A DNA stretch of 64,000 nucleotides from an uncultured Gammaproteobacteria bacterium (lineage in GTDB: Bacteria > Pseudomonadota > Gammaproteobacteria > CAVZZX01): NCBI GenBank assembly GCA_963779865.1, contig CAVZZX010000003.1, forward strand, positions 2,252,274-2,316,273. The letters are read 5' to 3'. This document shows positions 10,292 through 37,395 of the stretch, piece after piece (within the stretch, counting starts at the first letter, position 1; the number at the start of each line of letters is the position of its first letter). Below the pieces are notes generated by a model. The model saw only the letters and a list, made by a program, of their open reading frames with translations. It was not told the DNA's origin and made no database searches. Both the position numbers and the translations under genes were made by a program.

Positions 10292-10535
10292 GAATTCGTC
10301 TGCGGATATCGACTGGAGCCTTACCACCTGGGAAGGCTCCCGCCAGGAACAGATGCGACGCTGGGCGGAATTGCCTTTGGAGCGGATTGTCGCGGCGTTA
10401 GAGGAAATGGAGGAATTGGCGGCCGCGCTTGGCGGTTGTGCGGGCGCAGCGCATGCGGTGCCTGTCGGACGATGGATTACGTTCGTCGCCGGGCCTGCGC
10501 GGGGGCAGGACGTTAGGAGCGCAGTGCATTACTAA
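10278..10535 (+). CDS. hypothetical small protein overlapping the nucleotidyltransferase 3' end (possible partner or remnant)
   Basis: This is an 85-codon ORF, MEPIENSSADIDWSLTTWEGSRQEQMRRWAELPLERIVAALEEMEEL. No recognisable motif was found, and its coding status is uncertain. Confidence 0.2.
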   Translation: MEPIENSSADIDWSLTTWEGSRQEQMRRWAELPLERIVAALEEMEELAAALGGCAGAAHAVPVGRWITFVAGPARGQDVRSAVHY

Positions 10536-10908
10536 CAGCACAACAAAACCGAGCCCAACCACGAAAGTAATTGGTGAATACATTTTCCACGGCGCGTGTT
10601 GCTCGAATGAGGAGAATCAATAGCCGGAGCCACATGGTGGGCCGACTCCCTCGTGAGGATGACTTGTTGGAAATGGTAGACCATGGGCTTCAGGACTGTT
10701 GTTTGGTGGTGAGCGAAGTGGCCGTCCATAATTCCCTACAGGGGTCCCCAGAAGTTCCCCTCCCCATCGAAGCAGGACCGCTGTCTTGCAAGTTGTTGTC
10801 TGAAGAGCAATCTCCGCGGCCCACGTGCCGCGGCCTCATTGAAAAGCGCAAGCATTCGGACCACGTGCCCGAATAGGAAGAACCACATCTGCAACCCAAG
10901 GAGTCGTC

Positions 10909-12234: not shown

Positions 12235-12238
12235 CGCC

Positions 12239-13804
12239 GTGTTGGCCTTCGGTATTCGCTACCTGAACGGCTTCGCCGCAGCCGCCGAGCCCGACGACCG
12301 AGGTTGCGCGGAATGGCCGCCGCACCCAGGCCGGGTGTTCATGGCAATGGCTGCCGCGCACTTTCAGACCGGGGCCGAGCCCGCCGAACGGGCGGCCCTC
12401 CTCTGGCTGGAAGGTTCGGGACGCGGCGACGAGGTCGACGCACCGCACCTGGCGGCGCCGGAGGGAACGCTGCGAGCGGTAGTCACGCATTATGTGCCGG
12501 TCAACGACAAGGCGGGACCGTCCAAGGCCGTGCTGCATTCGCTGCCGCTGACTCGCGAGCGCCAGGAGCGTACCTTCGCCCGTGCCTGGCTCGACAGCGA
12601 TACGGTTTATCTCATTTGGCCCGAGTTGAATCCGCCTCCGGAACACCGCCGCGCTTTGGAGGCCTTGTGCGCCAAGGTCACCCGCGTAGGCCACTCCAGC
12701 TCCCTGGTGCAGATGTGGCTGGCGGACAGCGCGGAGACTTACGAGCCGAACTGGGTGCCGGACGACACGCGAGGGACCATCCGCTTGCGCATTGCCGGTC
12801 CGGGGACCCTGGAACACCTCGAACAGGAGTACAACGCGATGGCGATGGAGGATTACGCCACCCTCAGGGTCGAGGCGGAAACGGCGCCGACGCCGAAGGA
12901 GAGGACGGCAGCGAGGCGGCGGCTCAAGCGGGACTACGACAACAATCCTCCACGGCAACAGCGGCCGATCTTGTCGCTCTATCAAGGTTACGCGGCGGCC
13001 ACGACCCTGGCGAAAAACCCAGGCGTGCCCGGGACGATCTACAGCCCGCATTTCATCGCGCTCAAGCTGGTCCCCGAGCAGGGCCCGTATCGCGAACTCG
13101 ATCTCGCCGCCACGCATGCCATCGTATTGCGCTGGCGCGAGGCGATCCTCAGTCACAGCAATGGGGAACCAGACCGGGTACGCAGCATCCTGAGCGGCCA
13201 CGATCGCGAGGGTGCACCGCTCAAGGAACCGCACCTGGCCTTCCTCCCGCTGCCCTTCGTCGACCACGAGCACGCCGACGGCCATCTGCTCGGCATAGGC
13301 CTCGTCTTGCCGGCGACGATCGAGCGGGACGAGCGGCGCGCCATCCTGCGCGTGCTCGGCCAAGTCCAGCGCCTCAAGCTTGGGCGCCTCGGGCTATGGA
13401 AGCTCGTCCCGGTCACCGAATCCCGCCCACCCTGGAACCTGCGGCCGGAAACCTGGACGGCCTACACGGACGGCGCCACCCACTGGACGTCAGTGACCCC
13501 TGTTGCCCTCGACCGCCACCCGAAGGCAAAAGGCGAGGCGGCCTACCGGCAAGAGCTGGCCCGCATGATTTCCCAAAGTTGCGAGCGCATCGGTCTCCCC
13601 CCACCGCGCGATGTGATACCCACCTTCGTGTCGACCCACCTCGGCGCGCCCCCAGCCCACGCTTTTCCAAAGCTCATGCGCAAGGACGGCAGCGAACGGC
13701 GTCACACCCACGCCATTCTGATATTCGACGAACCGGTGTGCGGGCCGCTGCTGATTGGGGCGGGGCGGTTCCGCGGGTACGGAGCGTTCCGACCGCAACT
13801 CTGA
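12239..13804 (+). CDS. csb2: type I-G Cas5-Cas6 fusion, Csb2 family
   Basis: The N-terminus VLAFGIRYLNGF...EWPPHPGRVFMAMAAA resembles the Csb2 signature that I recall as EWPPSP.RLF. The GTG start lies 5 nt after the csb1 stop and is preceded by an AGGGGGG ribosome-binding site. Confidence 0.75.
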   Translation: MLAFGIRYLNGFAAAAEPDDRGCAEWPPHPGRVFMAMAAAHFQTGAEPAERAALLWLEGSGRGDEVDAPHLAAPEGTLRAVVTHYVPVNDKAGPSKAVLHSLPLTRERQERTFARAWLDSDTVYLIWPELNPPPEHRRALEALCAKVTRVGHSSSLVQMWLADSAETYEPNWVPDDTRGTIRLRIAGPGTLEHLEQEYNAMAMEDYATLRVEAETAPTPKERTAARRRLKRDYDNNPPRQQRPILSLYQGYAAATTLAKNPGVPGTIYSPHFIALKLVPEQGPYRELDLAATHAIVLRWREAILSHSNGEPDRVRSILSGHDREGAPLKEPHLAFLPLPFVDHEHADGHLLGIGLVLPATIERDERRAILRVLGQVQRLKLGRLGLWKLVPVTESRPPWNLRPETWTAYTDGATHWTSVTPVALDRHPKAKGEAAYRQELARMISQSCERIGLPPPRDVIPTFVSTHLGAPPAHAFPKLMRKDGSERRHTHAILIFDEPVCGPLLIGAGRFRGYGAFRPQL

Positions 13805-13857
13805 GGAGAATCAGGCATGCGTGAACGGGAGCTTAGCCTTAAGAATGGGGTGATCGA

Positions 13858-16800
13858 GTGGAGACTGCCCGCAATGACGGGTTCGAGAAGATAACCAGAG
13901 GATGGGGACAGGAGATGATTCCATTGCCTGATTTCTCTTTGTGGTTCCATGCACTCTGGGGCCACTCTCCGTTTCCCTGGCAGCGCATACTCGCCGAGCG
14001 ATTGGTCAAGGGCGAGTGGCCCAAGGCTCTGGACCTGCCTACCGCCGCGGGCAAGACAGCCTGCATCGATGTCGCCGTCTATGCGCTGGCGACCCAGGCG
14101 GAGAAGCCAGTGTGGGAGCGGACGGCACCACGGCGCATCTGGTTCGTGGTGGATCGGCGCATCGTAGTCGATGAGGCGTTTGCGCGCGCGGAGCAGATCG
14201 CGCAGAAGCTTGCGACGGCGACGGATGGTCCTCTCAGGGCTGTTGCCGAGCGGCTATTGCGGGTGAGCGGAACGACCCGACCGCTGGCCACGGCAAGACT
14301 GCGCGGCGGTGTGTTGCGCGACGACGGGTGGGCGCGGCTACCTTCGCAGCCAGCGGTGATCACCTCCACGGTGGATCAGCTCGGCGCCCGCCTGCTATTC
14401 CGCGGTTATGGCCACAGCCCGAACACCGCCTCCATCTTTGCAGGCTTGGCGGCGCACGATAGTCTGATTTTGTTGGATGAAGCCCACCTATCAGTGCCGT
14501 TCATGCAGACGCTGCGGGCGGTAGAGCGCTATCGGGGGCCGGAGTGGGCTGAAGAGCCGATCCGAACGCCATTCGCCTTTGCCCTGCTGTCGGCGACACC
14601 TCCGTCCGATAGTGTCCCCACCGAGGTGTTTCCTGGTATTCGGCGCGCCGAAGCCCTGAATCACCCGGCCTTGCGGCAGCGCATACAGGCGCGAAAGCCG
14701 GCCGACCTGGTCGAGGTCACGGGGAGAAAATCGGACCCTTCCGATCCACTGGTCGCGGAAGCCGTTGCGCGTGCCAGGATGTTCACTATTAAGGGACGGC
14801 GGCGCGTCGCCGTGGTCGTCAATCGGGTGGGCACAGCGCAGGCAATCGCTCACGGCCTTCGCGAGGCAATCGGCGGCGATATGGACGTCGTGCTCCTCAC
14901 CGGAAGGCTGCGGCCCCTGGAACGCGACACCCTGGTGGAGCGCTGGCGGCCTTTGCTGCGGGCTAATGCACCAGCGGAACCGGAGCGCCCGATTGTGTTG
15001 GTCGCGACCCAGTGTATCGAAGTTGGAGCGGACTTCAGCTTCGACGCGTTGGTGAGCGAGGCGGCGAGCCTGGATGCGCTGCGCCAGCGCTTTGGCCGGC
15101 TGAATCGGCTAGGCATGGAAGAGACCGCACTGGCGGCGATCCTGATCCGTGCCGCGGATGCTAAAGACGATTCCGACGATCCGGTATACGGCACAGCCAT
15201 GTCTGCCTGCTGGCGGCTACTGAGCGAATTGGCAGAGGCGGATGGAGTCGGCAAGCGGGGAGGCAAGCGCATCGATTTCGGCATCGCCGCCTTGGACAGC
15301 CTCTTGGAACCGCTCAACGATTTCAGCCCCTATTTGGCACCAGTCACGGTTGCTCCGCTGCTCTTGCCTGCGCACCTTGACCTACTGTGCCAGACCGCGC
15401 CGCCGCCTCCGATAGAACCCGCCATCTCACTGTACCTCCATGGCGTCGACCGCGGACAGCCGGAAGTCCGAGTTGTCTGGCGCGCAGATCTGAGTACCGC
15501 GAGTGCCGGGGACTGGGCAGAAATCGTCGCCCTCTGCCCACCCAACAGCATGGAGTCGTTGTCGGTACCACTTACCCGCCTCCGCGGCTGGCTGGCGAAC
15601 CACGGCGCCGGTCAAGAAACGGCGGATGTGGAAGGCGGGAGCTGGGAGGCGCCTCCGATGGCGCCGCAAGAATTCCGGCCGGTTCTCGCGTGGCGGGGAC
15701 GCGAGCGCTCGCGGGTCGTTATGCAAGCTTCCGAGTTGCGGCCGGATGATCTGGTCGTGCTGCCGACTGGATATGGAATTGAAGGGCTCGGCCAGAGCGT
15801 CCCCACGACGGCCCTAGGCGGGCATCAGCTTGACATCTGGGAGCCGAGTCATAGGCAGAGCGGAAAACCGGCCACGCTGCGATTGCACCGCGAAGTGTTG
15901 CAACCGTGGCGGGACTGCCCACCGCTCGCCGAACTTATCGCTTTGGCCGAGGATCCGGATTGGGAGAGCGAAGCACTACAGGTTGCCATCGATGCCGTAC
16001 TCGATTACGTACCAGGCACGGATGAGGATCCGCCACCGCCACCGCCACCGCAGTGGCTGACGGATATGCTCCGGCAGGCTCGCAGCGGAAGGGTAGAGAA
16101 GCACCCTGCAAACGGCCTGATATTGTTTGCGCCCTCCGACAGGAATCAGAACGGTGAGGAGCAAGACCTGTTCGCCGACGACGACGACCTGCTCTCTGCC
16201 ACCGGCCGCGAGGTCAGTCTCGGTGTTCACAGTGCGTCAGTGGAACGGGCGGTCGGGCAATTAGCCCAGCGCTGCCTGCCCGAGCCCTTTTTCGCACCGC
16301 TGCGAGCGGCGGCCTACTGGCATGATGTCGGCAAGCTGGACGAGCGCTTCCAGATGTGGCTGCGCGAGGGCAACGAACTCGAGGTGCTCGCCGGCGAACC
16401 CTTGGCCAAGTCGAGGGGCATCGCCACTTCCCCGGAGCGACGCCGCCGGCTGCGCGAGGCGAGCGGCCTGCCCGAGCGCTTCCGGCACGAGATGCTTTCG
16501 ATGCAACTGGCCGAACGATATGGCCCTGCGCCTCACGGTGAGGGGACGGACGTCCTTGTCCTGCACGCCATCGCCAGCCATCACGGCTATGCGCGACCGT
16601 TTGCACCGCCGAGTCCCGACCCGCTTCCACCGCCGGTCCGCGGGCGGCATGCCGGCGCGGAGATCGACATCGACATTACAACCCGCGCGGGATGGCCGGT
16701 ACCGGCATCGATAGCCGCCGGCATGGCGGAACGGTTTTGGCGTCTTACACGACGTCACGGTTGGTGGGGGCTAGCCTACCTCGAGGCGATTCTCCGTTTG

Positions 16801-18048
16801 GGAGACTGGTACGGCAGCCAGCGAATCGTGGAGGAAGCACCCGTGGAGGGTTCAGCACCTGCGAAAGGTCCCGTCCGTGCGAAGCGCCCAACGTTACCGG
16901 GGACAGAGGTCCCACTCACCGGAGTCGATGGCGCGAACCCGTTGGGTTTTCTGTGCGCGCTCGGTACGATGGTGGTGTTGCACGAGGCGGGGCACGGCGA
17001 TGCGCGACTCTTATGGCGGCGCGAGGGATTGACATGGCGCCCCCTGCTGACGGGCCTGCCCACCGGGGATAGATCGGCTTTGGCACAAACCATCGCTGAT
17101 GGTTTACGCGGTTCGATCGTTTCCGCCGAAACCGAGGCGGCACGCAAGGACGCACAAATGCGCTTGGGCGAGGTGGAGAAGAAGGTCAAAGAGGCGCAAA
17201 AGGATATCAAGCTGCGAAGATTGCGAGGCAAGGAGCGCCAGCAGGCGTACGCCGCGGAGATTTCGCCGCTAGAAGCCGAACGTAAGCTGCTGCAGCAGGA
17301 TTTTCTGCGGGCACTGCGCCAAGCCGTTCCCCGCCCTGAACTCGCGCTAGGCAAGAACATCGACGCCACAGCCGCTGAGTATCGAGCCCTCACCGAGCCG
17401 CATGTCAGCAATGCCCGCTATAACGATCGCGAGTGCCTGGACTTGCTTGCTGCTTTCGCCAGCGATGGCTGTCTGCATCGCAGTCCGACCAAGCGCAAAG
17501 AAGGGAAGCTGGCGCCCACGCCTTTTTCCTTCATATCCGGTTCGGGCCACCAGGACTTCCTCGAGACCGTACGAGGGCTTCTTCAGCGGGTGACGCCGGA
17601 ACTTGTCAGCTCCACCTTGTTTTCGCCATGGCGGTACGATGAAGAAGGGCTGTCCATGCGCTGGGACCCGGTCGAAGATAGACGCTACGCCTTGATGGAC
17701 CGCGACCCCACGGCGAGCGACAACAAGCCTCGCACAGTCTGGATGGCTAACCTGCTGGCGTACCGGGCGCTCGCATTGTTTCCCTCCGCGCCGGGGCGCA
17801 GACGCCTGCTCACCACCGGCTGGGCCCGCGATGCCACTGGGGAATCCTTTGTCTGGCCACTTTGGATACACCCGGCCGATCGGGACACCATCCGTTCGCT
17901 GCTGCTGCTGCCGGAGCTATATTCGCCTGCGCCGGATCGACAGGTCTTGCGCACAAGAGGCGTGGAAGCAGTCTTCCGTGCACGCCGCATAAAAGTCGGA
18001 AGCGGTGCGAACTTCAAGATCAATTTCAGTGCAGCTCGCGAGGTCTAG
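13858..18048 (+). CDS. cas3: Cas3 helicase-HD nuclease with a roughly 470-aa C-terminal extension; putative Cas3-Cas8u (Csx17-like) fusion
   Basis: The N-terminus FHALWGHSPFPWQ...LPTAAGKTACID provides Walker A and LILLDEAH provides the DEAH box. An HD domain (YWHDVGKLDERFQ...IASHHGYARP) lies at about residues 815-920. The C-terminal extension then opens with GVDGANPLGFLCALGTMVVL, which resembles the Csx17 N-terminal PLGSYLKALGVLRLV block. The ORF is uninterrupted. Confidence 0.8.
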   Translation: METARNDGFEKITRGWGQEMIPLPDFSLWFHALWGHSPFPWQRILAERLVKGEWPKALDLPTAAGKTACIDVAVYALATQAEKPVWERTAPRRIWFVVDRRIVVDEAFARAEQIAQKLATATDGPLRAVAERLLRVSGTTRPLATARLRGGVLRDDGWARLPSQPAVITSTVDQLGARLLFRGYGHSPNTASIFAGLAAHDSLILLDEAHLSVPFMQTLRAVERYRGPEWAEEPIRTPFAFALLSATPPSDSVPTEVFPGIRRAEALNHPALRQRIQARKPADLVEVTGRKSDPSDPLVAEAVARARMFTIKGRRRVAVVVNRVGTAQAIAHGLREAIGGDMDVVLLTGRLRPLERDTLVERWRPLLRANAPAEPERPIVLVATQCIEVGADFSFDALVSEAASLDALRQRFGRLNRLGMEETALAAILIRAADAKDDSDDPVYGTAMSACWRLLSELAEADGVGKRGGKRIDFGIAALDSLLEPLNDFSPYLAPVTVAPLLLPAHLDLLCQTAPPPPIEPAISLYLHGVDRGQPEVRVVWRADLSTASAGDWAEIVALCPPNSMESLSVPLTRLRGWLANHGAGQETADVEGGSWEAPPMAPQEFRPVLAWRGRERSRVVMQASELRPDDLVVLPTGYGIEGLGQSVPTTALGGHQLDIWEPSHRQSGKPATLRLHREVLQPWRDCPPLAELIALAEDPDWESEALQVAIDAVLDYVPGTDEDPPPPPPPQWLTDMLRQARSGRVEKHPANGLILFAPSDRNQNGEEQDLFADDDDLLSATGREVSLGVHSASVERAVGQLAQRCLPEPFFAPLRAAAYWHDVGKLDERFQMWLREGNELEVLAGEPLAKSRGIATSPERRRRLREASGLPERFRHEMLSMQLAERYGPAPHGEGTDVLVLHAIASHHGYARPFAPPSPDPLPPPVRGRHAGAEIDIDITTRAGWPVPASIAAGMAERFWRLTRRHGWWGLAYLEAILRLGDWYGSQRIVEEAPVEGSAPAKGPVRAKRPTLPGTEVPLTGVDGANPLGFLCALGTMVVLHEAGHGDARLLWRREGLTWRPLLTGLPTGDRSALAQTIADGLRGSIVSAETEAARKDAQMRLGEVEKKVKEAQKDIKLRRLRGKERQQAYAAEISPLEAERKLLQQDFLRALRQAVPRPELALGKNIDATAAEYRALTEPHVSNARYNDRECLDLLAAFASDGCLHRSPTKRKEGKLAPTPFSFISGSGHQDFLETVRGLLQRVTPELVSSTLFSPWRYDEEGLSMRWDPVEDRRYALMDRDPTASDNKPRTVWMANLLAYRALALFPSAPGRRRLLTTGWARDATGESFVWPLWIHPADRDTIRSLLLLPELYSPAPDRQVLRTRGVEAVFRARRIKVGSGANFKINFSAAREV

Positions 18049-18260
18049 CATTGCCGGTGGCTTGCAGGTGCTACGCGAATGTGGCGGCACGTATAGATAG
18101 GCGTTTGGCGCCTGAGCTCGGCCGTGTTGATCTAACAGCAGTACGCCGAGACAGGTTTATCGGGCACGCATTCTCGGCTCTTTAACAACTTGGAACCTTC
18201 TATTCCGCGGCTCTCCGGAGCCGCGGCCTCATTGCCGTCGGCACGCCCTAGCGACCGCTT

Positions 18261-18382
18261 CAGTCCATCCCCAACAGCACGCGCACCGAGCGCTCAATGG
18301 CGGCCATTTCGTCGGGCTCCAGGCAGGTCAGCGGCCCCTCGCCGAAGCGGGTGTGGTCCAGCGCGCGTATCCGATCGGTCAT
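18261..18382 (-). other. 41-codon ORF in the cas3 / cas4-cas1 intergenic gap; possible gene remnant
   Basis: The translation is MTDRIRALDHTRFGEGPLTCLEPDEMAAIERSVRVLLGMD*. No family was recognised. It sits in a 770-bp gap that is otherwise non-coding. Confidence 0.15.
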
Positions 18383-18821
18383 AACGTGGGAGTCCTTGCG
18401 CAGCCGAGCCTCGTGCGGCCGGGCGTACGCGCAGGGGCGCGATGGATTTTTGTAGTAGCGTGATCAGAGGTGCCACCAGCACACAGTGGGTACGCCCTGT
18501 GCGGTAATGTAGTCGCCTTGCCGCATCACCACCGGGTGGACTTTTCCGATCCCCGCGGCGGTATTCCGATTGAGCCACCAGCCGGGCTTCGCCGCGGCGC
18601 GTCAATCCCACCACTTCTCTTCCGGTCCGCCAACCTGCTCGGCGATGCATAGAGTGCACCGATCACTTGCGACGAACTCTTCCGCGTGGCACCCATGCGA
18701 CAAGCCGTAACGTATGACGGATTCAGAGTCTTACTTGCCGAGGGGCAAGCGGGCAACGCACGCCGCTAAATCCCCAGGCGCCGTGCACCAGAGGATTCAT
18801 TGGACGGTCGGGGGGACCTGT

Positions 18822-20528
18822 ATGGAGGACCAGCACCAGGGCGAACTGCCCTTACCCTTTCCGGAGCTTTCCGGCGATATGCCGTTGCTCCCGGCGCGCA
18901 TGCTCAACGAGTTCGCCTACTGTCCACGGCTGGCCTACCTGGAGTGGGTACAGGGGGAATGGGCGGATTCAGGGGACACGGTCGAGGGGCGGCATGTGCA
19001 CCGCCGGGTCGACCAGCCGTCCAAGGGCATGCCTTCTGCGGAGGACGCCACGGAGCGCTTCCATGCCCGGTCGATCACACTGTCCTCGAACCGGCTGGGG
19101 CTGATCGCGAAGATGGACCTTATCGAAGGCGACGGCGAGCGGGTCACGCCCGTGGACTACAAGCGGGGCAAACGCCCGCACGTCCCGAAGGGCGCCTACG
19201 AGCCCGAACGTGTGCAACTCTGCGTGCAGGGGCTGATCCTCCAGGAGCACGGCTACACCTGCGCCGAGGGTGTGCTCTACTTCGCCGCCTCGAAGGAGCG
19301 GGTGCGGGTGGTTTTCGACGAGGAGTTGCGGGAGCAGACGCTGGCGGCGGTCAACGGCCTGCGCTTCATCGCCGCCGGCGGGCAGATGCCGCCGCCGCTG
19401 GAAGACAGCCCGAAATGTCCGCGCTGCTCGCTGGTGGGGATCTGCCTGCCGGACGAGGTGAACTATTTCCGCAAGGGTCAGGACAGTCCCCGACCGCTCG
19501 CGGTCGGCCGCGAGGAGGCGATGCCGGTCTACGTGCAGGCCAATCGCGCCAAGGTCACCAAGAAGGGCGAGTTGCTCGAGGTCAGCATCGAAGACAAGCC
19601 CGTTACCACCGCCCGTTTAGCGGAGGTCTCGCAGCTCGCGCTGATGGGCAACGTCTATCTGACCACGCCCTGCCTGCACGAGCTCATGCGCCGCGATATC
19701 CCGGTGAGCTGGCATTCCTTCGGCGGCTGGTTCCTGGGGCACACCGTGGGCACCGGACACAAGAACGTCGAGCTGCGTACCGCGCAGTATCGGGCGAGCT
19801 TCGATCAGCGTGCCTGCCTGCATTTGGCCAAGGGGCTGGTGCAGACCAAGATCCTCAACAGCCGCACACTGCTTCGGCGCAACTGGCGCGGCGAGGACGA
19901 TCCGAAGGCGCTGCTTCAGGACATGCAGCGCGATGCCAGACAGGCGGCCCGTGCGGAGAGCCTCTCCGAGCTGCTTGGCATCGAAGGCGCGGCGGCGGCT
20001 CGCTATTTCGGCCGATTCGACCGACTAATAAAGAAGAACGCGGACACCGAAAGCTTCAGCTTCGACTTCAATCGACGCAACCGGCGCCCGCCGACCGATC
20101 CAGTCAACGCCCTGTTGTCCTACGCCTATACCATTCTGGTGCGGAGCTGGACCGTCGCCCTCTCCGCCGTGGGCTTCGATCCCTATCGCGGCTTTTACCA
20201 CCAGCCACGGTATGGGCGACCGGCACTGGCGCTGGATATGATGGAGCCGTTTCGCCCCTTGATCGCCGAATCGGCGGTGTTGTCCGCCATCAACAATGGC
20301 GAGGTCCGCCCTAGTGACTTCATCGCGGCCGCGGGCAGCGTGGCTCTGACCCCGGACGGCCGCAAGCGGTTCATTGCGGTTGTCGAACGCAGACTCAGTC
20401 AGGAAATCACGCATCCGCTGTTCGGATACAAGGCCAGCTATCGGCGTATTCTCGAGATACAGGCTCGGTTGCTCGGGCGGTATCTACTGGGGGATATACA
20501 GGACTTCCCGGGCTTTACGACGAGGTGA
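18822..20528 (+). CDS. cas4-cas1: Cas4-Cas1 fusion protein
   Basis: The N-terminal Cas4 part has an N-terminal Cys (CPRLAYLEW), a RecB-nuclease DxnExK block (DLIEGDGERVTPVDYKRGK) and a C-terminal CPRCSLVGIC Fe-S motif. The Cas1 part follows (YLTTPCLHELMRRDIPVSWHSFGGWF...). A GGGGGGA ribosome-binding site precedes the ATG at 18822. The six-frame ORF starts at 18714. Confidence 0.9.
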   Translation: MEDQHQGELPLPFPELSGDMPLLPARMLNEFAYCPRLAYLEWVQGEWADSGDTVEGRHVHRRVDQPSKGMPSAEDATERFHARSITLSSNRLGLIAKMDLIEGDGERVTPVDYKRGKRPHVPKGAYEPERVQLCVQGLILQEHGYTCAEGVLYFAASKERVRVVFDEELREQTLAAVNGLRFIAAGGQMPPPLEDSPKCPRCSLVGICLPDEVNYFRKGQDSPRPLAVGREEAMPVYVQANRAKVTKKGELLEVSIEDKPVTTARLAEVSQLALMGNVYLTTPCLHELMRRDIPVSWHSFGGWFLGHTVGTGHKNVELRTAQYRASFDQRACLHLAKGLVQTKILNSRTLLRRNWRGEDDPKALLQDMQRDARQAARAESLSELLGIEGAAAARYFGRFDRLIKKNADTESFSFDFNRRNRRPPTDPVNALLSYAYTILVRSWTVALSAVGFDPYRGFYHQPRYGRPALALDMMEPFRPLIAESAVLSAINNGEVRPSDFIAAAGSVALTPDGRKRFIAVVERRLSQEITHPLFGYKASYRRILEIQARLLGRYLLGDIQDFPGFTTR

Positions 20529-20531
20529 ATC

Positions 20532-20825
20532 GTGGACGAGCACCTGTACGTGGTCACCTACGACATCGCAGACCAGAAGCGCTGGAGGGCGGTCTTCAAG
20601 TTGATGCACGGCTACGGGGAATGGCTGCAGCTTTCCGTGTTTCAGTGCCGACTCAGCCGCAAGCGCCATGCCGAACTGCTCGCCACGCTTGACCAGATCA
20701 TCCATCACGACGAGGATCACATACTGATGCTGGACGTCGGCGCCGCCGAGAACGTCCGGCCAAGAGTCGTCAGTCTCGGAAAGGCAGGCTTCGAGCCCGT
20801 GGACCGCAAGCCGATAATCGTGTGA
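20532..20825 (+). CDS. cas2: Cas2
   Basis: The protein begins VDEHLYVVTYDIADQKRWRAVFKLMHGYGEWLQLSVFQC. It has a GTG start 4 nt after the cas4-cas1 stop. Confidence 0.9.
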   Translation: MDEHLYVVTYDIADQKRWRAVFKLMHGYGEWLQLSVFQCRLSRKRHAELLATLDQIIHHDEDHILMLDVGAAENVRPRVVSLGKAGFEPVDRKPIIV

Positions 20826-21029
20826 TTTTCGCCTTCGGCCTGCGAGCGCTCCGCTGCTGCCGCAATCCCGGGGAGCGCTCGCAGCACCGCAAGTGATTGG
20901 CGAAGCGGAAATTAATCCTCAAAGTGTTGCCCAAAACCTGGCGAAGGGAGGGAATGTGATGGCCTCGCAAGCACAGCGCTCGAAAAGGATGCCTCAAACG
21001 CGCCCCGCCACTGGTCTCCCGTGGAAGCG
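20826..21029 (+). promoter_or_regulatory. CRISPR leader
   Basis: A 204-bp non-coding stretch lies between cas2 and the first repeat and contains an AT-richer segment (gaaattaatcctcaaagtgttgcccaaaacc). The degenerate terminal repeat is at the distal end of the array, which is consistent with this orientation. Confidence 0.5.
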
Positions 21030-23123
21030 GTTATCCGCGGCATAACGCCGCGGCCTCATTGAAGCTTGACGATCTCGTTGCCCAGCTCGTAGAGGCTCTT
21101 GGTTATCCGCGGCATAACGCCGCGGCCTCATTGAAGCTCCGCCGGCAAGCTCGACGCCGAGGCCCTGCCGCTGGGTTATCCGCGGCATAACGCCGCGGCC
21201 TCATTGAAGCGTGATCTCGTTGTCGCGGGCCTGCCGGGTCAGCTGCGTTATCCGCGGCATAACGCCGCGGCCTCATTGAAGCGCATCGCTACTGGCGCGG
21301 CAATTGCCAAGGTCGCCGGCGGTTATCCGCGGCATAACGCCGCGGCCTCATTGAAGCGACGCGAAGCTCGCCGAACAGTGCGCAGCGCCAGCGTTATCCG
21401 CGGCATAACGCCGCGGCCTCATTGAAGCTCATCCTGCTCGGTGTGCTTCGCGGAATGTGCATCCATGTTATCCGCGGCATAACGCCGCGGCCTCATTGAA
21501 GCACCGAGGCTGCACGCACGACGACTGGCGCAGCCTGTGCGTTATCCGCGGCATAACGCCGCGGCCTCATTGAAGCCAACGGGTACACGACTGTCTGCAC
21601 TGAGCCTGTCAGTGTTATCCGCGGCATAACGCCGCGGCCTCATTGAAGCCGGACATTCAGCCGACCGCCGCAAGCCGATGTAGCGCGCGTTATCCGCGGC
21701 ATAACGCCGCGGCCTCATTGAAGCCATGTAGTTCGTCACGATCGGACGCTAATATTCTCACGCGTTATCCGCGGCATAACGCCGCGGCCTCATTGAAGCT
21801 TGTCGTGGTACGCACTCAGGTATTCCCTGGCTGTGGTTATCCGCGGCATAACGCCGCGGCCTCATTGAAGCCGAACCGGCGATCGGCTGGTACCCGGACC
21901 GCTTCTCGGTTATCCGCGGCATAACGCCGCGGCCTCATTGAAGCATGATCGTCCAGGTAATCGCGTCGTCGGAGATCGCCAGTTATCCGCGGCATAACGC
22001 CGCGGCCTCATTGAAGCTTCCGCTACTGGGACGATCCGTGCCAGCCGACGCAAGCGTTATCCGCGGCATAACGCCGCGGCCTCATTGAAGCCAGCAGCGT
22101 GTCAAGCGGCTTTGCGTCGATGGCGATGTTATCCGCGGCATAACGCCGCGGCCTCATTGAAGCGACGGTAGCTATCTCGACTACCACGACGCTCGCGGAC
22201 GTTATCCGCGGCATAACGCCGCGGCCTCATTGAAGCCGCATGCGGCATCGAGGAAGTCGTCGAACAGCGTTCCGGTTATCCGCGGCATAACGCCGCGGCC
22301 TCATTGAAGCGTCGGTACAATGACCGAGTCGCCTAACTAGTAGCGCTCATGTTATCCGCGGCATAACGCCGCGGCCTCATTGAAGCGACGCCTCCGGCGC
22401 CGAGACTTTGCTCGATCAAGGGTTATCCGCGGCATAACGCCGCGGCCTCATTGAAGCGCACGAGATACGCGGTCCTCGACTGTCCCGACGCGGACGTTAT
22501 CCGCGGCATAACGCCGCGGCCTCATTGAAGCGAGCTCCGGATCCGCTCGCACTCGCGCGTCGCGCGACTGTGGTTATCCGCGGCATAACGCCGCGGCCTC
22601 ATTGAAGCACTCCCTTGGCGATTGATCAGGCGCATGTCGCTACGTCACCAGGTTATCCGCGGCATAACGCCGCGGCCTCATTGAAGCATCGCCGAGCGCT
22701 TGAGCAGCGCCACCCTGCCCTTGGTTATCCGCGGCATAACGCCGCGGCCTCATTGAAGCTCCCATTTCACGTAAGCGGGGACATCACCCGTGTACGTGTT
22801 ATCCGCGGCATAACGCCGCGGCCTCATTGAAGCTTGTGTTGTCACTTCTCTGCCTTTCTTTTCGGCCGGCGTTATCCGCGGCATAACGCCGCGGCCTCAT
22901 TGAAGCATGAGCACCAGCGCATCGCCGGAGGCGGCATCCGCGTTATCCGCGGCATAACGCCGCGGCCTCATTGAAGCGCCAGCTATCGTAGCTACCTTGC
23001 GGGCAATGCGGCCGTTATCCGCGGCATAACGCCGCGGCCTCATTGAAGCACCCCGGAGCAGGACGGGCTGCACCAGAACTGGATACGTTATCCGCGGCAT
23101 ATTCGCCGCGGCCTCATTGAGGC
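21030..23123 (+). CRISPR. CRISPR array of 29 repeats of 36 bp (GTTATCCGCGGCATAACGCCGCGGCCTCATTGAAGC) and 28 spacers of 35-39 bp; the terminal repeat is degenerate
   Basis: Repeat starts were read at 21030, 21102, 21175, 21247, 21322, 21394, 21467, 21541, 21614, 21689, 21764, 21836, 21909, 21982, 22056, 22128, 22201, 22275, 22351, 22422, 22496, 22573, 22652, 22724, 22798, 22871, 22942, 23014 and 23087. The last repeat reads gttatccgcggcatattcgccgcggcctcattgaggc. Each repeat contains the palindrome CCGCGGC-ATAAC-GCCGCGG. The ATTGAAGC tail resembles I-C/I-G repeats. Confidence 0.97.
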
Positions 23124-23349: not shown

Positions 23350-30544
<7,195 letters not shown>

Positions 30545-30730
30545 AGCGGGCTTCCCTAAGGTTTTTAAATGGGGTCGGCCTCGCGAATCTACGGGAGGCC
30601 GGCGCGGAAGAAAAGCCGAATGCACTGAAAACACGAGGGATCTGCCCGGAAATACGGGCGCGTCCGGAGCTGCATCAGGGTTATCCCTTAGGGGTTTTCC
30701 CGGGGACGTGCAGGGACACGGCCGCGGCCC

Positions 30731-31563: not shown

Positions 31564-33607
31564 TCAGGCGGCGATGCCGCTGTGCCGCAGCAGGGCGTCG
31601 ATGCGCGGCTCGCGGCCGCGGAAGGCCACGAACAGCTCCATGGCATCGCGCGAGCCGCCCTGTTCGAGGATGTCGTGCAGGAAGGCGCGGCCGGTATCCG
31701 CATCGAAGATGCCGTTCTCCTCGAACTTGGAGAAGGCGTCGGCCGAGAGCACCTCGGCCCACTTGTAGCTGTAATAGCCCGCCGCATAGCCGCCCGCGAA
31801 GATGTGCGAGAAGCCGTGCTGAAAGCGGTTGTACGCCGGTTGCGGCACCACGGCCACCTCGTCGCGCGCGGCGTCGAGCGTCGCCTGGATGCGCGCCCCG
31901 CGGGTCGGCTCGTACTCCAGGTGCAGGCGAAAGTCGAACAGCGAGAACTCCAGCTGGCGCACCATCTGCATGCCGGCACCGAAATTGCGCGCCGCGTACA
32001 TCTTCTCGTACAACGCCTGGGGCAGGGCCTCGCCGGTCTCGTAATGGCCGCTGATGAGGTCCAGCGCCTCGCGCTCCCAGCACCAGTTCTCCATGAACTG
32101 GCTGGGCAGCTCCACCGCGTCCCAGGCCACGCCGTTGATGCCCGAGACGTCGATGTAATCGACCCGGGTCAGCATGTGGTGCAGACCGTGGCCGAATTCG
32201 TGGAACAGGGTGGTGACCTCATCGTGGGTGAACAGCGCCGGCTTGCCGTCCACCGGCGGGGTGAGGTTGCACACCAGGTAGGCGGCCGGGATCTGCAGCT
32301 GGCCGTCGGCGTGGCGCAGGCGGCCCATGCAGTCGTCCATCCAGGCGCCGCCGCGCTTGCGCGGCGCGCGCGTAGAGGTCAAGATAGAAGCGCCCGCGCA
32401 GCACGCCTTCGGCGTCGCGGATCTCGTAGAAGCGCACGTCCGGGTGCCAGCTCTGCACGCCCTCGACCCGCTCGATGGACACCCCATAGAGGCGCCGCAC
32501 CACCTCGAACATGCCGGGGACGACGCGGCTCTCGGGGAAATAGGGCTTGAGGTCCTCCTGGCTGAAGTCGAAGCGCTGCTCACGCAGCTTCTCCGCGTAG
32601 TAGGCCACGTCCCAGGCCTCCAGCCGCTCCAGGGCGTCGCGTTCGCGGGCAAAGGCCTCCAGGTCCGCGAACTCCCGCTCGGCCTGCGGTTTGGAGCGGT
32701 CGGCCAGGTCGAGCAGGAAGCTGAGCACCTGCGCCGGGTTGTCGGCCATCTTGGTGGCCAGCGAGTACTCGGCGTAGCTGGCGAAGCCGAGCAGCTCGGC
32801 CTCCTCGTGGCGCAGGGCGAGGATCTCCTCCATGAGCGCGCCGTTGTCCCACTGCCCGCCATGGGGCCCGCGCTCGGAGGCGCGCGTGGCGTAGGCCTCG
32901 TGCAGCTCACGGCGCAGGGCGCGATCCTCAGCGAAGCTGATCACGGCGTAATACGAGGGAAAATCCAGCGTCAGCAGCCAGCCCTCCACGCCCTTTTCGC
33001 GCGCCGCCTGCGCCGCCATGGCAAGCGCCGATTCGGGCAGCCCGGCGAGGGCGGCGCGGTCGCTGACCTGCTTGCTCCAGGCATTGGTGGCGTCGAGGAG
33101 GTTCTCCTCGTACTTGGTCCCGAGCTGGGAGAGGCGCTGCTCGATGGCCTTGAAGCGCGCCTTGCGCTCGGCCGAGAGGTCCACACCAGAGAGGTGGAAG
33201 TCGCGCAGGGCGTTGTCGATCACCTTGCGCTGGGCGGTGTCCAGGGCCGCGTACGCCGGCCCGTCCTTGATGCTGCGGTAGGCCGCGTAGAGGCGTTCGT
33301 TCTGGCCGAGCTCGGTGGCGTAATCGCTCAGCCGGGGCAGGCAGGCATTGTAGGCGGCGCGCAGGGCATCGCTGTTGACGACCGCGTTCATATGGCTCAC
33401 GGGCGACCAGATCCGCGCCAGCCGGTCTTCCATCTCCTGGAGCGGTTGCACCAGGTTGGCCCAGGTGAAGGGGGGCTCCTGCGCCAGCAGCCGTTCCAGG
33501 CCGGCGCGGTTGTCCGCCAGCACGGCGTCCACGGCGGGCTCGACGTGGGCGGGCTCGATGGCCGCGAAGGGCGGCAGGTCCTGCATGTCCAGCAGCGGAT
33601 TCGCCAT
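31564..33607 (-). CDS. prlC: oligopeptidase A (M3 family), interrupted by a frameshift at about 32365-32395
   Basis: ORF 32219..33607 carries the N-terminal 460 aa (MANPLLDMQDLPPFAA...RGRFYLDLYAR). The ORF ending at 32910 carries the C-terminal part (KRGGAWMDDCMG...HEFGHGLHHML zinc motif...). The two halves join at a gcgcgcgccgcg run with a 1-nt indel. Confidence 0.8.
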
Positions 33608-33713: not shown

Positions 33714-34715
33714 ATGGAACACGCCGCACACCCCTATGAGTCGCTCACGCCCGACACCGTCCTGGACGCGGTGGAGGCCACGGGCCGCCGCTGCGACGGG
33801 CGGGTACTGGCGCTCAACAGCTACGAGAACCGCGTCTACCAGGTGGGAATCGAGGAGGCCACGCCGATCATTGCCAAGTTCTACCGGCCGGGGCGCTGGT
33901 CGGACGCGGCCATCCTGGAAGAGCACGCCTTCGCCCTCGAGCTGGCCGAGCACGAGATCCCGGTGGTCGCCCCCCTGGCCGACGCGGCCGGGCAGACCAT
34001 GCTGCGCCACGCGGGCTTTCGCTTCGCCCTGTTTCCGCGCCGGGGCGGCCGCGCCCCCGAGCCCGACGACCCCGAGCAGCTCGAGGTGCTCGGGCGCTTC
34101 ATCGGCCGCATTCACGCCGTGGGGGGCATCCGTCCCTTCACGCACCGCGCGCGGCTGACGGTGGAGCGCTTCGGCGAGACCCCCTTGCGCGAACTGCTCG
34201 ACTCGGGCCTCGTGCAGGCGGAGGTGGCGCACAACTACCGGCTTGCCGCCGAGGCGGTGCTCGAAGCGGTGCGCGCCGCCTTCGACATGGTGGGGCCGCT
34301 GCCGCGGCTGCGCCTGCACGGCGACTGCCACCTGGGCAACGTGCTGTGGACCGCCACGGGACCGCACTTCGTGGACCTCGACGACGCGGTGAGCGGGCCT
34401 GCGGTGCAGGATCTGTGGATGCTGCTCTCGGGGACGCGCGCCGATATGGAACGCCAACTGCAGGCGGTGCTCACCGGCTATCGCCAGTTTCGCGACTTCG
34501 ACCCCCTGGAGCTCCACCTGGTCGAGCCGCTGCGCGGCCTGCGCCTCATCAACTACGCCGCCTGGCTGGCACGGCGCTGGGACGACCCGGCCTTCCCCTT
34601 TCACTTTCCCTGGTTCGGCACGCCCCGCTACTGGGAGGAGCAGATGCTCACCCTGCGCGAGCAGCTCGAACGCCTGCAGAGCCCGCCCGCTGGAGCTGCG
34701 TTAAGCGGGCGTTAA
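33714..34715 (+). CDS. srkA: stress-response kinase SrkA/YihE family (protein kinase-like fold)
   Basis: The protein begins MEHAAHPYESLTPDTVLDAVEA...LNSYENRVYQVGIEE and contains the DCHLGNVLW catalytic-loop motif. Confidence 0.8.
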   Translation: MEHAAHPYESLTPDTVLDAVEATGRRCDGRVLALNSYENRVYQVGIEEATPIIAKFYRPGRWSDAAILEEHAFALELAEHEIPVVAPLADAAGQTMLRHAGFRFALFPRRGGRAPEPDDPEQLEVLGRFIGRIHAVGGIRPFTHRARLTVERFGETPLRELLDSGLVQAEVAHNYRLAAEAVLEAVRAAFDMVGPLPRLRLHGDCHLGNVLWTATGPHFVDLDDAVSGPAVQDLWMLLSGTRADMERQLQAVLTGYRQFRDFDPLELHLVEPLRGLRLINYAAWLARRWDDPAFPFHFPWFGTPRYWEEQMLTLREQLERLQSPPAGAALSGR

Positions 34716-34908: not shown

Positions 34909-35901
34909 ATGAAACGCAGACAATTCCTGAAGATCGGCGGCGGCGCCGCTGCCGCCCTGGCGGGCGGCGGCGGCGCGCTGACCTGGTCGCGGCGCGCCCG
35001 CGCGCAGGCCGTGCAGCGGACGCTGTACATCACTGACGGCTTCATCGACCAGCCTGACGGCCAGCAGGTCTATTGCGGCTACAGCCGCACCAGCGGCAGC
35101 CTGGGCGTCCCCGCCCGCCCGATGATCGTCCAGGAGGCCGACACGATGGAGATCACGTCGTGAACACCCGGCAGCGCCCACAGCTTCGTCATCGACGGCG
35201 CGGTGGACAGCGGCGCAATCGCAGGCGGGGCGACGCAGACCGTCAGCTTCGCCGCCCCGGCCGCCGGTTCCTACCTGTTCTACGACAGCGTGGACGGGCC
35301 GATGAATCGACTCGCCGGCCTGCACGGCGGCCTGGCGGTGATGCCCGCCGGCAGTGCCAACGAGCTCTATGCGGGCAGTCCGAGCTTCGTGCAGCAGTAT
35401 TTCTGGGTCGTCAACGACATCGACCCGCGCTGGCACGAGGCGGCGCGCACCGGCCGCACACCGCCCTCGGGCTTCGTGCCGCGCTACTTCACCCTCAACG
35501 GCCAGAGCAGCCGCCCGCCCGGCGCCGCCGGCGCCGGCGATCCGGCGGTGGACGCGATGGCCAACCCGAACACCGTGCTGCACGGCAGCATTGGGGATCG
35601 CACCCTCATCCGGCTTCTCAACGCCGGCCTGTGCACCCATTCGGTCCACTGGCACGCGAACCACGTGGAATGGCTCACCGCCAACGGCCAGGTGCGCCCC
35701 GCCGTCTGGCTCAAGGACATCGTGCCGCTGCGCAACAACCGCGGCGGCGCAGACGTGATCTACCCCTACGAGATGCCGCCCGACGCGTGGCCGCCGGTCA
35801 CCACCGGCATGTATCCCATGCACCTGCATGACGAGATGAGCCAGACGGCGGGCGGCGGCTCGTATCTGTTCGGCGCCATGACCGACATCCATTTCGAATA
35901 G
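34909..35901 (+). CDS. Tat-secreted multicopper-oxidase-like protein of about 330 aa with two cupredoxin domains; an in-frame TGA lies at 35161-35163
   Basis: The N-terminus carries a Tat signal (MKRRQFLKIGGGAAAALAGG). HSVHWHANH and MHLHDEM HxH motifs are in the C-terminal domain. No HCH type-1 copper motif is present. The frame continues unchanged across the TGA (..MEITS*TPGSAHSFVIDG..). Confidence 0.55.
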
Positions 35902-35913
35902 GGGGAGATCGAT

Positions 35914-36894
35914 ATGAGCATGACCAATGCCTGTTACGTCTATCCGGGCGCGCCGGCCACACCGGGTCTGGTGACGCCGGACGTGGTGTTTCGCCGCGGC
36001 ATCTACATGAATGGCATCCTCAACCTCGATGACGGCAATGCCGTGACGGTATGGGGGTTCACCGACCTCGACGCCGGGGGCGGGCATGATGGGCGGCGGC
36101 GGCATGGGGGGCCAGTTCCCCTCGCCGGCGATCCGCGTGACCGAAGGGCAGGTGGTCCACACCGAGCTCAGCGGTCAACGGCGACATGTGGCTGCACACG
36201 ATCCACCATCACGGCATCGAGCCGGCCTGGCAGAACGACGGCGTCGGGCACATCTCCTGGGACGTGAACGGGACCTATACCTACCAGTGGCGCCCGCAGC
36301 ACGCCGGCACGTACTTCTACCATTGCCATACCAACACGGTGCTGCACGCGGAGATGGGCATGTACGGGGCGCTGATCGTCGATCCGGCGCCGGACGCCAA
36401 CGGCGTGGTGCGCGCCTTCGCCGGCGGCCCCGCCTACGACGTGGAGGTGGTGTGGGCCTGCGACGAGATCGACTCGTCCTGGCACACGCTGAACTGGGCG
36501 GCGGGCACCTGCGGCGGCGACGTCGGACTGAACGACCTCAATCCCGACTACTTCGTCATCACCGGGGTGGACGGCGCGCAGTCGGCACTGACGGCGCCGG
36601 GCGTGGCGGTGCAGATGAGCCGCGGGCAGACCCTGCTGGCGCGCTACATCTGCGCCGGCTATTACCCGCAGCGCGATCGACTTCGGCGGCCTGACCGCCC
36701 AGGTGATCGCCTCCGACGGGCGACCGCTGCCGCAGGCCTTCTCCGCCACCTCTCTGGAGGCGACTGCCGCCGAGCGCTACGACTGCCTGTTCACGCCCAC
36801 GCAGGCGGGCGAGTACACGGTGTCGGTGGACTTCCTGCACTGGGTGACGGGGGCGGTGCTCGGCACCGCGCGCACGCGCATCACGGTGGTGTGA
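35914..36894 (+). pseudogene. multicopper-oxidase-like protein of about 325 aa, with a Met/Gly-rich segment and HxH plus HCHxxxHxxxxM type-1 copper motifs; three apparent frameshifts
   Basis: The coding pieces run in the frame of 35914..about 36075 (MSMTNACYVYPGAP...), then the frame of the 36086 ORF (GGGMMGGGGMGGQFPSPAIRVTEGQVVHTELSG), then the frame of the 36186 ORF (NGDMWLHTIHHHG...YFYHCHTNTVLHAEMGMYGALIV...), then the frame of the 36703 ORF (AIDFGG...DFLHWVTG..RITVV*). The shifts sit in G-runs and a gcgcg run. Confidence 0.5.
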
Positions 36895-36945: not shown

Positions 36946-37269
36946 CTACTGGCGCGGTCCCGCGTGCCAGACCCCGGTCGCGGGGCCGGTGCGCTCCTCC
37001 CAGCCCTCGGGCGCGGCGGCGCGCGGCTGCCTGCCCTGCTGCGACTGCTTCGACTGCTCGCCGAGCACGTGCCGCGCCAGGCCGTGGAGCTGATCGAGGA
37101 TATCGTTCTTCTCCTCGGCGCTGGTCGGAAACTGGGCGGTCATCAGCCCCACCACCGCCGCCAGGTACTGCACCGTCACCACCTGGTTGCCGACCGCCTC
37201 CGGCTCGTGCTCCTCGATGAGCTTCTGCACGCCTTCGAGCAGGTCCGGCGTTAGCTTGATATCTGACAC
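36946..37269 (-). CDS. hypothetical small protein of 107 aa, divergent from gor
   Basis: A GTG start is preceded by a GGAGGGAG ribosome-binding site (..ggagggagacgcatccGTGtcagatatcaag on the minus strand). The product reads [70 protein letters not shown]... and no family was recognised. Confidence 0.4.
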
Positions 37270-37395
37270 GGATGCGTCTCCCTCCTCTCTGGGCCATTTT
37301 GCACAATGGCGCCTATGGTAACCTTCCCGATAGGGTACACCACAGGGGCCGGCCGCGTCGGCGGCCCCGCCGGGACAACACGAGCAAGGGGACCC

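Follow-up and report, generated by a model that had tools for sequence, protein, structure and literature searches.

The 64,000-nucleotide (nt) stretch of contig CAVZZX010000003.1 analysed here (the window), from an uncultured Gammaproteobacteria bacterium, carries at positions 34909-36894 two adjacent genes, gene 1 and gene 2, whose products are referred to as subunits A and B. The locus is probably a copy of a conserved two-gene operon for a heteromeric multicopper oxidase, and the copy in the window is damaged or mis-sequenced. In the proposed model A and B would both descend from a type-C two-domain oxidase. A would have lost all copper ligands of its first cupredoxin domain and kept two HxH pairs in domain 2, and B would have kept the type-1 site (His, Cys, His and Met) together with HxH and HCH pairs in domain 1 and lost the ligands of domain 2. 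Through a 1:1 pairing, domain 2 of A and domain 1 of B would build a single trinuclear copper centre, which would be linked to the sole type-1 copper via a Cys-His bridge. The folded A-B complex would leave through the twin-arginine (Tat) pathway using the signal peptide of A, and in the periplasm it would oxidise a one-electron donor and reduce O2 to water. The donor would most likely be Cu(I), caught by flexible Gly/Met-rich segments of B, which is the weakest step of the model.

Gene 1 (34909-35901, forward strand, as are all features of the pair) encodes a two-cupredoxin-domain protein with a Tat signal, as indicated by its translation, by an intact orthologue and by an AlphaFold2 model of a family member. 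The orthologue lies on the 5.5-kb contig L001, where both genes are uninterrupted and encode proteins of 332 and 328 amino acids (aa). The Tat signal peptide of gene 1 (MKRRQFLKIGGG...ARA, 34909-35004) bears the motif MKRRQFLK and is assigned from invariant residues and from a match to Pfam TAT_signal with an E-value of 9e-4, which does not reach the curated cut-off. Domain 2 contains two HxH motifs that are 100% conserved. The first, HSVHWHANH (35638-35664; 83 homologues), lines up with HAIHTHGH in domain 2 of the type-C oxidase 3G5W when two alignments are chained, and its H249 and H251 (L001 numbering) are proposed as ligands of the trinuclear centre, with the invariant N253 and H254 alongside. 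The second, MHLHDEM (35818-35838), comprises H307 and H309 and is retained also in the fused and Geobacter relatives described below. The type-1 Cys is absent from the translation of gene 1 and an Asp stands in its place. A first-pass annotation, made from the sequence alone, had described domain 1 as ligand-free. This description does not hold, as conserved H93/D128/N135/H141 occupy type-1-site positions (window 35185-35347), with D128 replacing Cys, and even the most distant relatives, the fused and Geobacter forms included, retain the set. Domain 1 may thus hold a remodelled metal site rather than being empty.

Gene 2 (35914-36894) begins 12 nt past gene 1 with its own ribosome-binding site, GGGGGAG, and encodes a two-cupredoxin-domain protein without a signal peptide that matches Pfam Cu-oxidase_3 (1.3e-13) and also Cu-oxidase_2 and Cu-oxidase. 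Aligned over 100% of its length, its conceptual translation shares 94% identity with the intact 328-aa relative P0001, and a search with this conceptual protein returned more than 1000 relatives, all of about 330 aa. The Gly/Met-rich loop GGGMMGGGGMGG (~36073-36114) lies ahead of the FPSP strand of domain 1. Further on, HTIHHHG (36195-36215) would provide the type-1 His H97 and the HxH pair H100 and H102, and HCHTNTVLHAEMGM (36321-36362) the trinuclear His H139 and H141, C140 and H147 as type-1 Cys and His, and M150 or M152 as an axial Met. The two motifs align with HTIHWHG and HCHVNVNEHVTMRGM of 3G5W, respectively. The Cys pair C7/C202 of gene 2 is invariant, also in the fusions, and fits a putative periplasmic disulfide. 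All the motifs quoted in the first-pass annotation were recovered by translation of the two genes where it had placed them. The Gly/Met-rich stretch, which had been likened to the Met-rich copper-binding segments of CueO, is likewise present and its character is kept among homologues. Of 41 parsed sequences, 40 have one or more Met in this loop (median of 2 Met and 9 Gly per 15 residues), and the N-terminal tails are similarly Gly/Met-rich. The length and sequence of the stretch vary, and its likeness to CueO is one of composition only.

The gene-1 and gene-2 families are related to each other (hhalign probability 98.8%, E-value 1e-16, 26% identity over 239 columns). A and B are paralogous two-domain cupredoxin proteins, closest to the type-C two-domain multicopper oxidases. 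The solved structures nearest to gene 2 are the type-C enzymes 3G5W (5.8e-19) and 2ZWN. Gene 1 is barely recognisable by sequence, and profile searches against Protein Data Bank (PDB) sequences align its domain 1 only. An AlphaFold2 model of a gene-1 family member, with a predicted local distance difference test (pLDDT) of 77 and a predicted template-modelling score (pTM) of 0.80, matched 3G5W and 2ZWN over both domains with template-modelling (TM) scores of 0.68-0.72. Of the two- and three-domain families that the first reading had put forward for comparison, the type-C two-domain oxidases are the best match, and three-domain CueO falls far below its cut-off. The pair reaches no NCBIfam model, with 31 bits against a cut-off of 525 for CueO, 61 against 479 for copper_res_A and 15-36 against 296 for Cu_nitrite_red. 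The NirK type, which has a three-His type-2 site and no HCH, does not describe the pair either, gene 2 having HxxHxH and HCH and domain 2 of gene 1 two HxH pairs.

The ligand motifs of the two families are complementary. Where one family has a ligand motif, the hhalign alignment places a stretch free of ligands in the other. HTIHHHG and YHCH of gene 2 are matched by t-H-SF and FYD in gene 1, and opposite HSVHWH of gene 1 stands PQRIDF of gene 2, itself aligned to HAIHTH of 3G5W. Ligand conservation was counted in 83 gene-1 and 71 gene-2 homologues. Conserved at 99-100% are H249, H251, H307 and H309, plus N253, H254, M306 and E311, in gene 1, and H97, H100, H101, H102, H115, H139, C140, H141, H147, M150 and M152 in gene 2; with ligands conserved to this degree, the motif pattern lies far beyond chance. 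A and B jointly hold one type-1 site and eight His in four HxH motifs for one trinuclear centre, and at most four of the eight are present in either A or B alone. Neither gene 1 nor gene 2 carries both trinuclear ligand sets in one polypeptide, as 3G5W does, and a type-1 site in domain 1, another feature of 3G5W, is found in gene 2 and not in gene 1. From homology and from the fusions described below we infer a trinuclear centre that spans the A-B interface.

Among close relatives the split arrangement recurs wherever the pair was assessed. A genome scan identified 146 gene-1 relatives among 185,579 species genomes; 80 loci were retrieved from these, and 83 related loci were examined in all. 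The hosts are mostly sulfur-oxidising Gammaproteobacteria (Sedimenticola, Thiogranum, Thiohalobacter, Thioalkalispiraceae, Ectothiorhodospiraceae and Acidiferrobacterales), joined by Betaproteobacteria that are also mostly sulfur oxidisers (Thiobacillus, Sulfuriferula and Sulfuricellaceae). A gene-2 homologue lies directly downstream of gene 1, on the same strand, in all 73 of the 73 loci with enough downstream DNA, so that the pair sought in other genomes was found in every assessable case. In 10 of the 83 loci the contig ends less than 800 nt after gene 1, and 4 of these 10 still show the start of gene 2. The intergenic gaps between A and B are short in the assessed loci, and none of the 83 related loci contains a fused A-B gene. 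The same split pair is carried by Sulfuriflexus mobilis and Thiobacillus genomes. Public annotation names these proteins 'multicopper oxidase domain-containing protein' or hypothetical. The possibility that the window merely holds one broken fused gene was ruled out, since every relative at 56% identity or more is split, with its own start sites, and the fused relatives are only ~36-46% identical. The split is thus a conserved state and not one broken gene.

Fused relatives provide evidence for a physical association of A and B. A profile search of 1.84 billion representative proteins returned 149 relatives with E-values below 1e-30, among them proteins of 600-930 aa in which a gene-1 part is followed by a gene-2 part, and a follow-up search gave about 15 A-B fusions from Deltaproteobacteria, Calditrichaeota, Krumholzibacteria and other metagenome-assembled genomes. 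In the fusions P0283, P0396-P0407, P0258 and P0251, A precedes B behind one Tat signal and all motifs are kept. All the aligned fusions display the same layout. One N-terminal Tat signal comes first, then part A with its two HxH motifs, and a 60-90-aa linker leads on to part B, which carries the conserved Cys, HT[IV]H[WL]HG and YHCH...H...M. The order of the halves is that of the genes in the split operons, and fusions in this same order (Rosetta-stone evidence) therefore support a 1:1 physical complex. A distant pair is split in Geobacter sp. DSM 9736, where a 465-aa type-A protein with a Tat signal precedes a signal-less 443-aa type-B protein with HTIHHHG and YHCH. The AlphaFold2 model of fusion P0283 (pLDDT 80, pTM 0.85) is confident in the relative placement of its four predicted domains. 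Foldseek comparison of this model with the PDB matched six-domain ring proteins (factor V, MnxG, ceruloplasmin and factor VIII) with TMq values of 0.46-0.53, two-domain 3G5W with 0.31 and three-domain oxidases with 0.26-0.29. The likeness is to four of the domains in such six-domain rings, an indirect hint of a ring-shaped assembly.

That A and B form no complex, each being a homo-oligomer with an incomplete, non-canonical copper site and the two being merely co-expressed, is very improbable. Two-domain oxidases and nitrite reductases are, as a matter of general family knowledge, homotrimers, and the H93/D128/N135/H141 set in domain 1 of gene 1 could form a separate metal site, both of which would suit such an arrangement. 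In contrast, the strict co-occurrence of A and B, the lack of an export signal in any B homologue and the fusions, which join both halves in a single chain whose domains are placed with confidence (pTM 0.85), argue for a complex, and eight conserved His that never meet would be hard to explain. The heteromeric split multicopper oxidase of the first reading, with complementary HxH motifs and one type-1 site, is thus supported by the linkage in 73 of 73 loci, by near-invariant ligands at complementary positions in paralogues, by the fusions and by the Geobacter split layout. A broader claim, which we hold to be a little more probable than its converse, is that these proteins constitute an unrecognised and widespread class with four cupredoxin domains and a single type-1/trinuclear unit, arranged in one chain or in two complementary paralogous subunits, with the centre at a heterologous interface and the signal-less subunit exported by Tat hitchhiking.

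Further variants were observed among the relatives. One or two extra C-terminal repeats of ~100 aa (...GKWKFKKKNS...), immunoglobulin-like in appearance, are present in the fused proteins P0258 and P0405-P0407. P0271 (745 aa) has the opposite order, with a complete type-C-like two-domain unit, a second two-domain unit without a type-1 site and a C-terminal plastocyanin-like domain, and therefore other arrangements of the theme exist. In the gene-1-type proteins P0256, P0260, P0270, P0274 and P0276, an N-terminal extension of 160-340 aa is rich in hydrophobic stretches and looks like a membrane domain ahead of a Tat-like RRxFL motif, an unusual arrangement. Directly after the split pair of Geobacter sp. 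DSM 9736 lies a gene for a 713-aa MauG/di-haem cytochrome c peroxidase (CCP)-like protein (L085, 9086-11227), which in that lineage may serve the oxidase in maturation or as a redox partner.

Export of the two subunits seems to depend on a single signal. The motif RRxF[LI]K is invariant in gene 1, with R3, R4 and F6 unchanged in 83 homologues. No gene-2 homologue examined has a signal peptide, and the N-termini are variable Gly/Ser/Thr/Met-rich tails without a hydrophobic core. The pair thus presents the arrangement of Tat hitchhikers, a twin-arginine signal on one partner and an adjacent partner gene, and the single-signal fusions imply that both halves cross the membrane behind one Tat signal. 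Joint A-B export by Tat hitchhiking, already suggested at first pass, would be the simplest reading of the invariant Tat motif, the signal-less B and the single-signal fusions.

The motifs of both genes are real, yet the genes of the window are only conceptual, because gene 1 contains a TGA and gene 2 is spread over three frames. The operon as written is unable to give full-length proteins. The two adjacent genes reported at first pass are therefore real as a pair at the family level, but neither is an intact open reading frame (ORF) in the window, a disruption that had gone unmentioned. In the translation of 34909-35901 codon 85 of gene 1 is an in-frame TGA (35161-35163), and an ORF finder yields only an 84-aa and a 232-aa piece. 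Alignment with L001 DNA, which is 95% identical to the window across the pair region and 92% overall, reveals deletions of 3, 1 and 2 nt in gene 1. The 1-nt and 2-nt deletions are 11 nt apart at the disruption site (35158-35170) and convert ...ITLVNTLGS... of L001 to ...ITS*TPGS..., producing the TGA (asterisk). Three frame changes, near 36083, 36173 and 36675, interrupt gene 2, which differs from L001 by deletions of 2 and 6 nt and by two 1-nt insertions. Gene 2 is read in frame 1 from 35914 to ~36084, in frame 2 to ~36172, in frame 0 from ~36174 to ~36675 and again in frame 1 to 36894; the Gly/Met-rich stretch falls in frame 2, HTIHHHG and HCHTNTVLHAEMGM in frame 0 and the C-terminal domain in frame 1. 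L001 and the window share the order of the pair, a 106-aa gene, glutathione reductase (gor) and CorA.

The damage extends beyond the pair. Seven frame-changing insertions or deletions (indels) lie within 4.3 kb (~32365, 34689, 35158, 35169, 36083, 36173 and 36675) and span three unrelated units, namely prlC, the tail of a srkA-like kinase and the oxidase pair, with five events in the pair. The oligopeptidase A gene prlC (31564-33607, reverse strand) is frameshifted near 32358-32372 in a GCGCGCGCG-rich stretch, and tblastn with a prlC orthologue changes frame there, covering residues 1-411 and then 416-679. The srkA/yihE-like kinase gene (33714-34715) has a 1-nt insertion at 34689 relative to L001, through which the protein is lengthened and its last four residues are altered, the end changing from RLQSPPLELR to RLQSPPAGAALSGR, each before the stop. 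Segmentation of the whole window by the phase of third-codon-position G+C (GC3) flagged several phase switches without stop codons. Frameshifts at five other switches were rejected, as Pfam shows ordinary borders there (glk/pgl, bfd/bfr, SBF/GGDEF-EAL, GBBH-like/ubiE and hslV/hslU), and no further frame change was evident elsewhere in the window by the GC3-phase scan, in which the switches of the lower-GC part at ~8-22 kb were checked incompletely. DNA alignment with L001 revealed no indels in 2.7 kb of gor and corA. The ratio of nonsynonymous to synonymous substitution rates (dN/dS) against L001, indels ignored, is 0.22 for gene 1, 0.07 for gene 2, 0.06 for gor and 0.12 for corA. An association of the indels with GATC methylation was also considered and dropped; three indels lie near GATC, but GATC occurs every 168 nt and the enrichment is weak.

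We hold it reasonably probable that the interruptions are local sequencing or assembly errors, with genes that are intact and an oxidase that is made in the living organism. This explanation fits the clustering of seven indels across three unrelated units, the normal gene borders at the five other switches tested, the absence of indels from gor and corA, a dN/dS for the pair as low as that of its housekeeping neighbours, and the restoration of the net frame in both gene 1 and gene 2. It fits less well with the location of the indels outside long homopolymers, with the partial verification of the switches at ~8-22 kb, and with the presence of the same 232-aa fragment on record from a 3.4-Mb public contig, the stop codon being therefore present in the deposited genome. 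Alternatively, the pair may consist of pseudogenes recently inactivated in this strain, so that the enzyme is no longer made, a possibility to which we give appreciable but minor weight. An in-frame stop and three frame changes inside 2 kb, the somewhat raised dN/dS of gene 1 with its extra 3-nt deletion, and the rarity of the pair, which is present in 146 of about 185,000 species genomes and is therefore dispensable, are consistent with inactivation. In contrast, the dN/dS of gene 2 requires that any decay be very recent, combinations of indels that restore the frame are unexpected in a decaying gene, and selection on the oxidase would not explain why the unrelated prlC and kinase genes are also struck. 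Since unrelated genes fall within the cluster and the coding signal shows no other damage, a local sequence-quality problem is favoured over selective decay, and error is somewhat more likely than true decay.

The complete ligand set of the two sequences implies a putative O2-reducing oxidase. Cu(I) is suggested as its donor because of the Gly/Met-rich segments and of CusBA efflux genes near the pair. CusA-like genes adjoin the pair in 17 of the 83 loci and CusB-like genes in 12, and in Betaproteobacteria both lie immediately downstream on the same strand. Copper genes nearby, suggested at first pass as something to check for, are thus present in part of the family and absent from the window, and no CueR/CopR-type regulator appeared in the neighbour clustering of related loci. 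Cu(I) oxidation ranks first among the donors as a tentative choice, roughly level with all other donors combined.

Several observations weigh against the model as a whole or against its copper substrate. Gene 1 and gene 2 are both disrupted in the window, and the A-B pair fills just four of the six positions in the trimeric ring of a two-domain oxidase. The Gly/Met-rich segments are absent from the fused and Geobacter relatives, ~80% of the loci, the window included, are without copper genes nearby, and the neighbours of the pair in the window are all housekeeping genes. Crp/Fnr-type regulators adjoin the pair in 17 loci, and the Thiobacillus pair has an Rrf2 (NsrR/RirA-like) regulator and qNOR upstream. 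These regulators and qNOR would also suit a heteromeric multicopper oxidase with another donor, such as Fe(II), Mn(II), hydroxylamine or NO-related species, a reduced sulfur compound or an electron-carrier protein, which is about as plausible, and as tentative, as Cu(I). Also in keeping with another donor, the closest relatives of known structure are two-domain oxidases of nitrifiers, hydroxylamine is oxidised by a related archaeal enzyme, the Geobacter pair is followed by a MauG/CCP-like haem protein and sulfur oxidisers make up most of the hosts. However, none of those neighbours is present consistently, and the Gly/Met-rich segments and the same-strand CusBA genes of Betaproteobacteria favour copper. 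Of 81 regions upstream of the pair, only 3 contain an FNR box (TTGAT-N4-ATCAA, with one mismatch allowed). A promoter and terminator scan gave no promoter-like site and two terminator-like matches that are within the range of shuffled sequence.

Other features of the window were recorded. Between the pair and gor, convergent to the pair, lies a gene for a small conserved protein of ~106-118 aa (~36946-37270, reverse strand), which occupies the same place in L001 and at least 7 related loci and has no Pfam or NCBIfam match. At 25295-30634 (reverse strand) a 1779-aa hybrid sensor histidine kinase is encoded, in which many near-identical HAMP-like repeats of ~92 aa make up the N-terminal half and GAF, kinase and several receiver domains follow. 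The region ~10000-22000 has a G+C content of 0.60-0.66, against 0.68-0.72 elsewhere, with a noisy GC3 phase signal, and may have been acquired.

To our knowledge, multicopper oxidases are classed as two-, three- or six-domain enzymes, and one gene product supplies every copper ligand in all described cases. The literature searched contains no account of a heteromeric, split or four-domain bacterial multicopper oxidase, nor of Tat hitchhiking by one. The pair is conserved and appears to be so far undescribed, with an architecture that would be new. If the model is correct, the division of eight trinuclear His over two paralogous subunits, together with the four-domain fused relatives, would constitute a new multicopper-oxidase architecture and a natural case of a metalloenzyme whose duplicated gene copies degenerated in complementary ways. 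The pair would also be a candidate for the first Tat hitchhiking copper oxidase and would flag a periplasmic oxidase in environmentally important sulfur-oxidising bacteria. The class would then represent a living intermediate between two-domain oxidases, which form homotrimers, and enzymes with six domains, for example ceruloplasmin. Annotation pipelines that proceed gene by gene would call both A and B inactive.

Known systems resemble the pair in different respects. The fungal heterodimeric laccases (POXA3/NLAC with a small subunit) also comprise two different polypeptides, but their large subunit by itself forms a full three-domain oxidase, and its small partner has neither a cupredoxin domain nor copper ligands. 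These laccases and the proteolytically generated ααα′ trimer of Nmar_1354 are the only two cases, both loosely related, that the literature searches brought up. The periplasmic cuprous oxidases CueO, PcoA and CopA may be similar in Tat export, in Met-rich segments, as far as most close homologues of the pair are concerned, and, in some genomes, in a link to Cus. They differ in being three-domain single chains, whereas the pair has two chains of two domains each, and in having a Met-rich helix or loop over the domain-3 type-1 site, where the pair has a Gly-rich low-complexity loop and an N-terminal tail. In known Tat hitchhikers (the small and large subunits of hydrogenases, DmsAB, NxrAB and the Streptomyces tyrosinase MelC1-MelC2) one partner likewise carries the signal, and its signal-less neighbour is thought to be exported in a folded, cofactor-loaded complex. 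None of these is a multicopper oxidase, and MelC1 is a chaperone outside the final enzyme, whereas in the pair both partners would give catalytic ligands.

The closest parallels are the two-domain and six-domain oxidases. Six-domain oxidases (ceruloplasmin and MnxG of the Bacillus Mnx complex), the best matches of the fused-relative model (TMq 0.50-0.53), form a cupredoxin ring in which most interfaces are without copper ligands and one trinuclear centre is kept. They have six domains per chain, against four in the fused and two plus two in the split relatives, and build their trinuclear centre at the interface of the first domain with the last, whereas that of the pair would lie between sequence-adjacent domains; ceruloplasmin, unlike the pair, has several type-1 sites. 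The type-C two-domain oxidases (the Nitrosomonas europaea blue copper oxidase 3G5W and the metagenomic mgLAC 2ZWN), which are the best sequence and fold matches to the pair, likewise have two cupredoxin domains in ~300 aa. Their domain 1 bears the type-1 site with HxxHxH and HCH, as in gene 2, their domain 2 the HxxHxH-type and HxH motifs, as in gene 1, and the trinuclear centre is formed where domain 1 of one chain meets domain 2 of a second chain. In contrast to the pair, one polypeptide carries both ligand sets and the homotrimer has three centres, whereas A and B would be complete only at the A-B interface, and the signal peptide is found on only one of the two proteins. By these comparisons the pair would work like a type-C enzyme at a single interface and, like the six-domain oxidases, would have kept only one centre.

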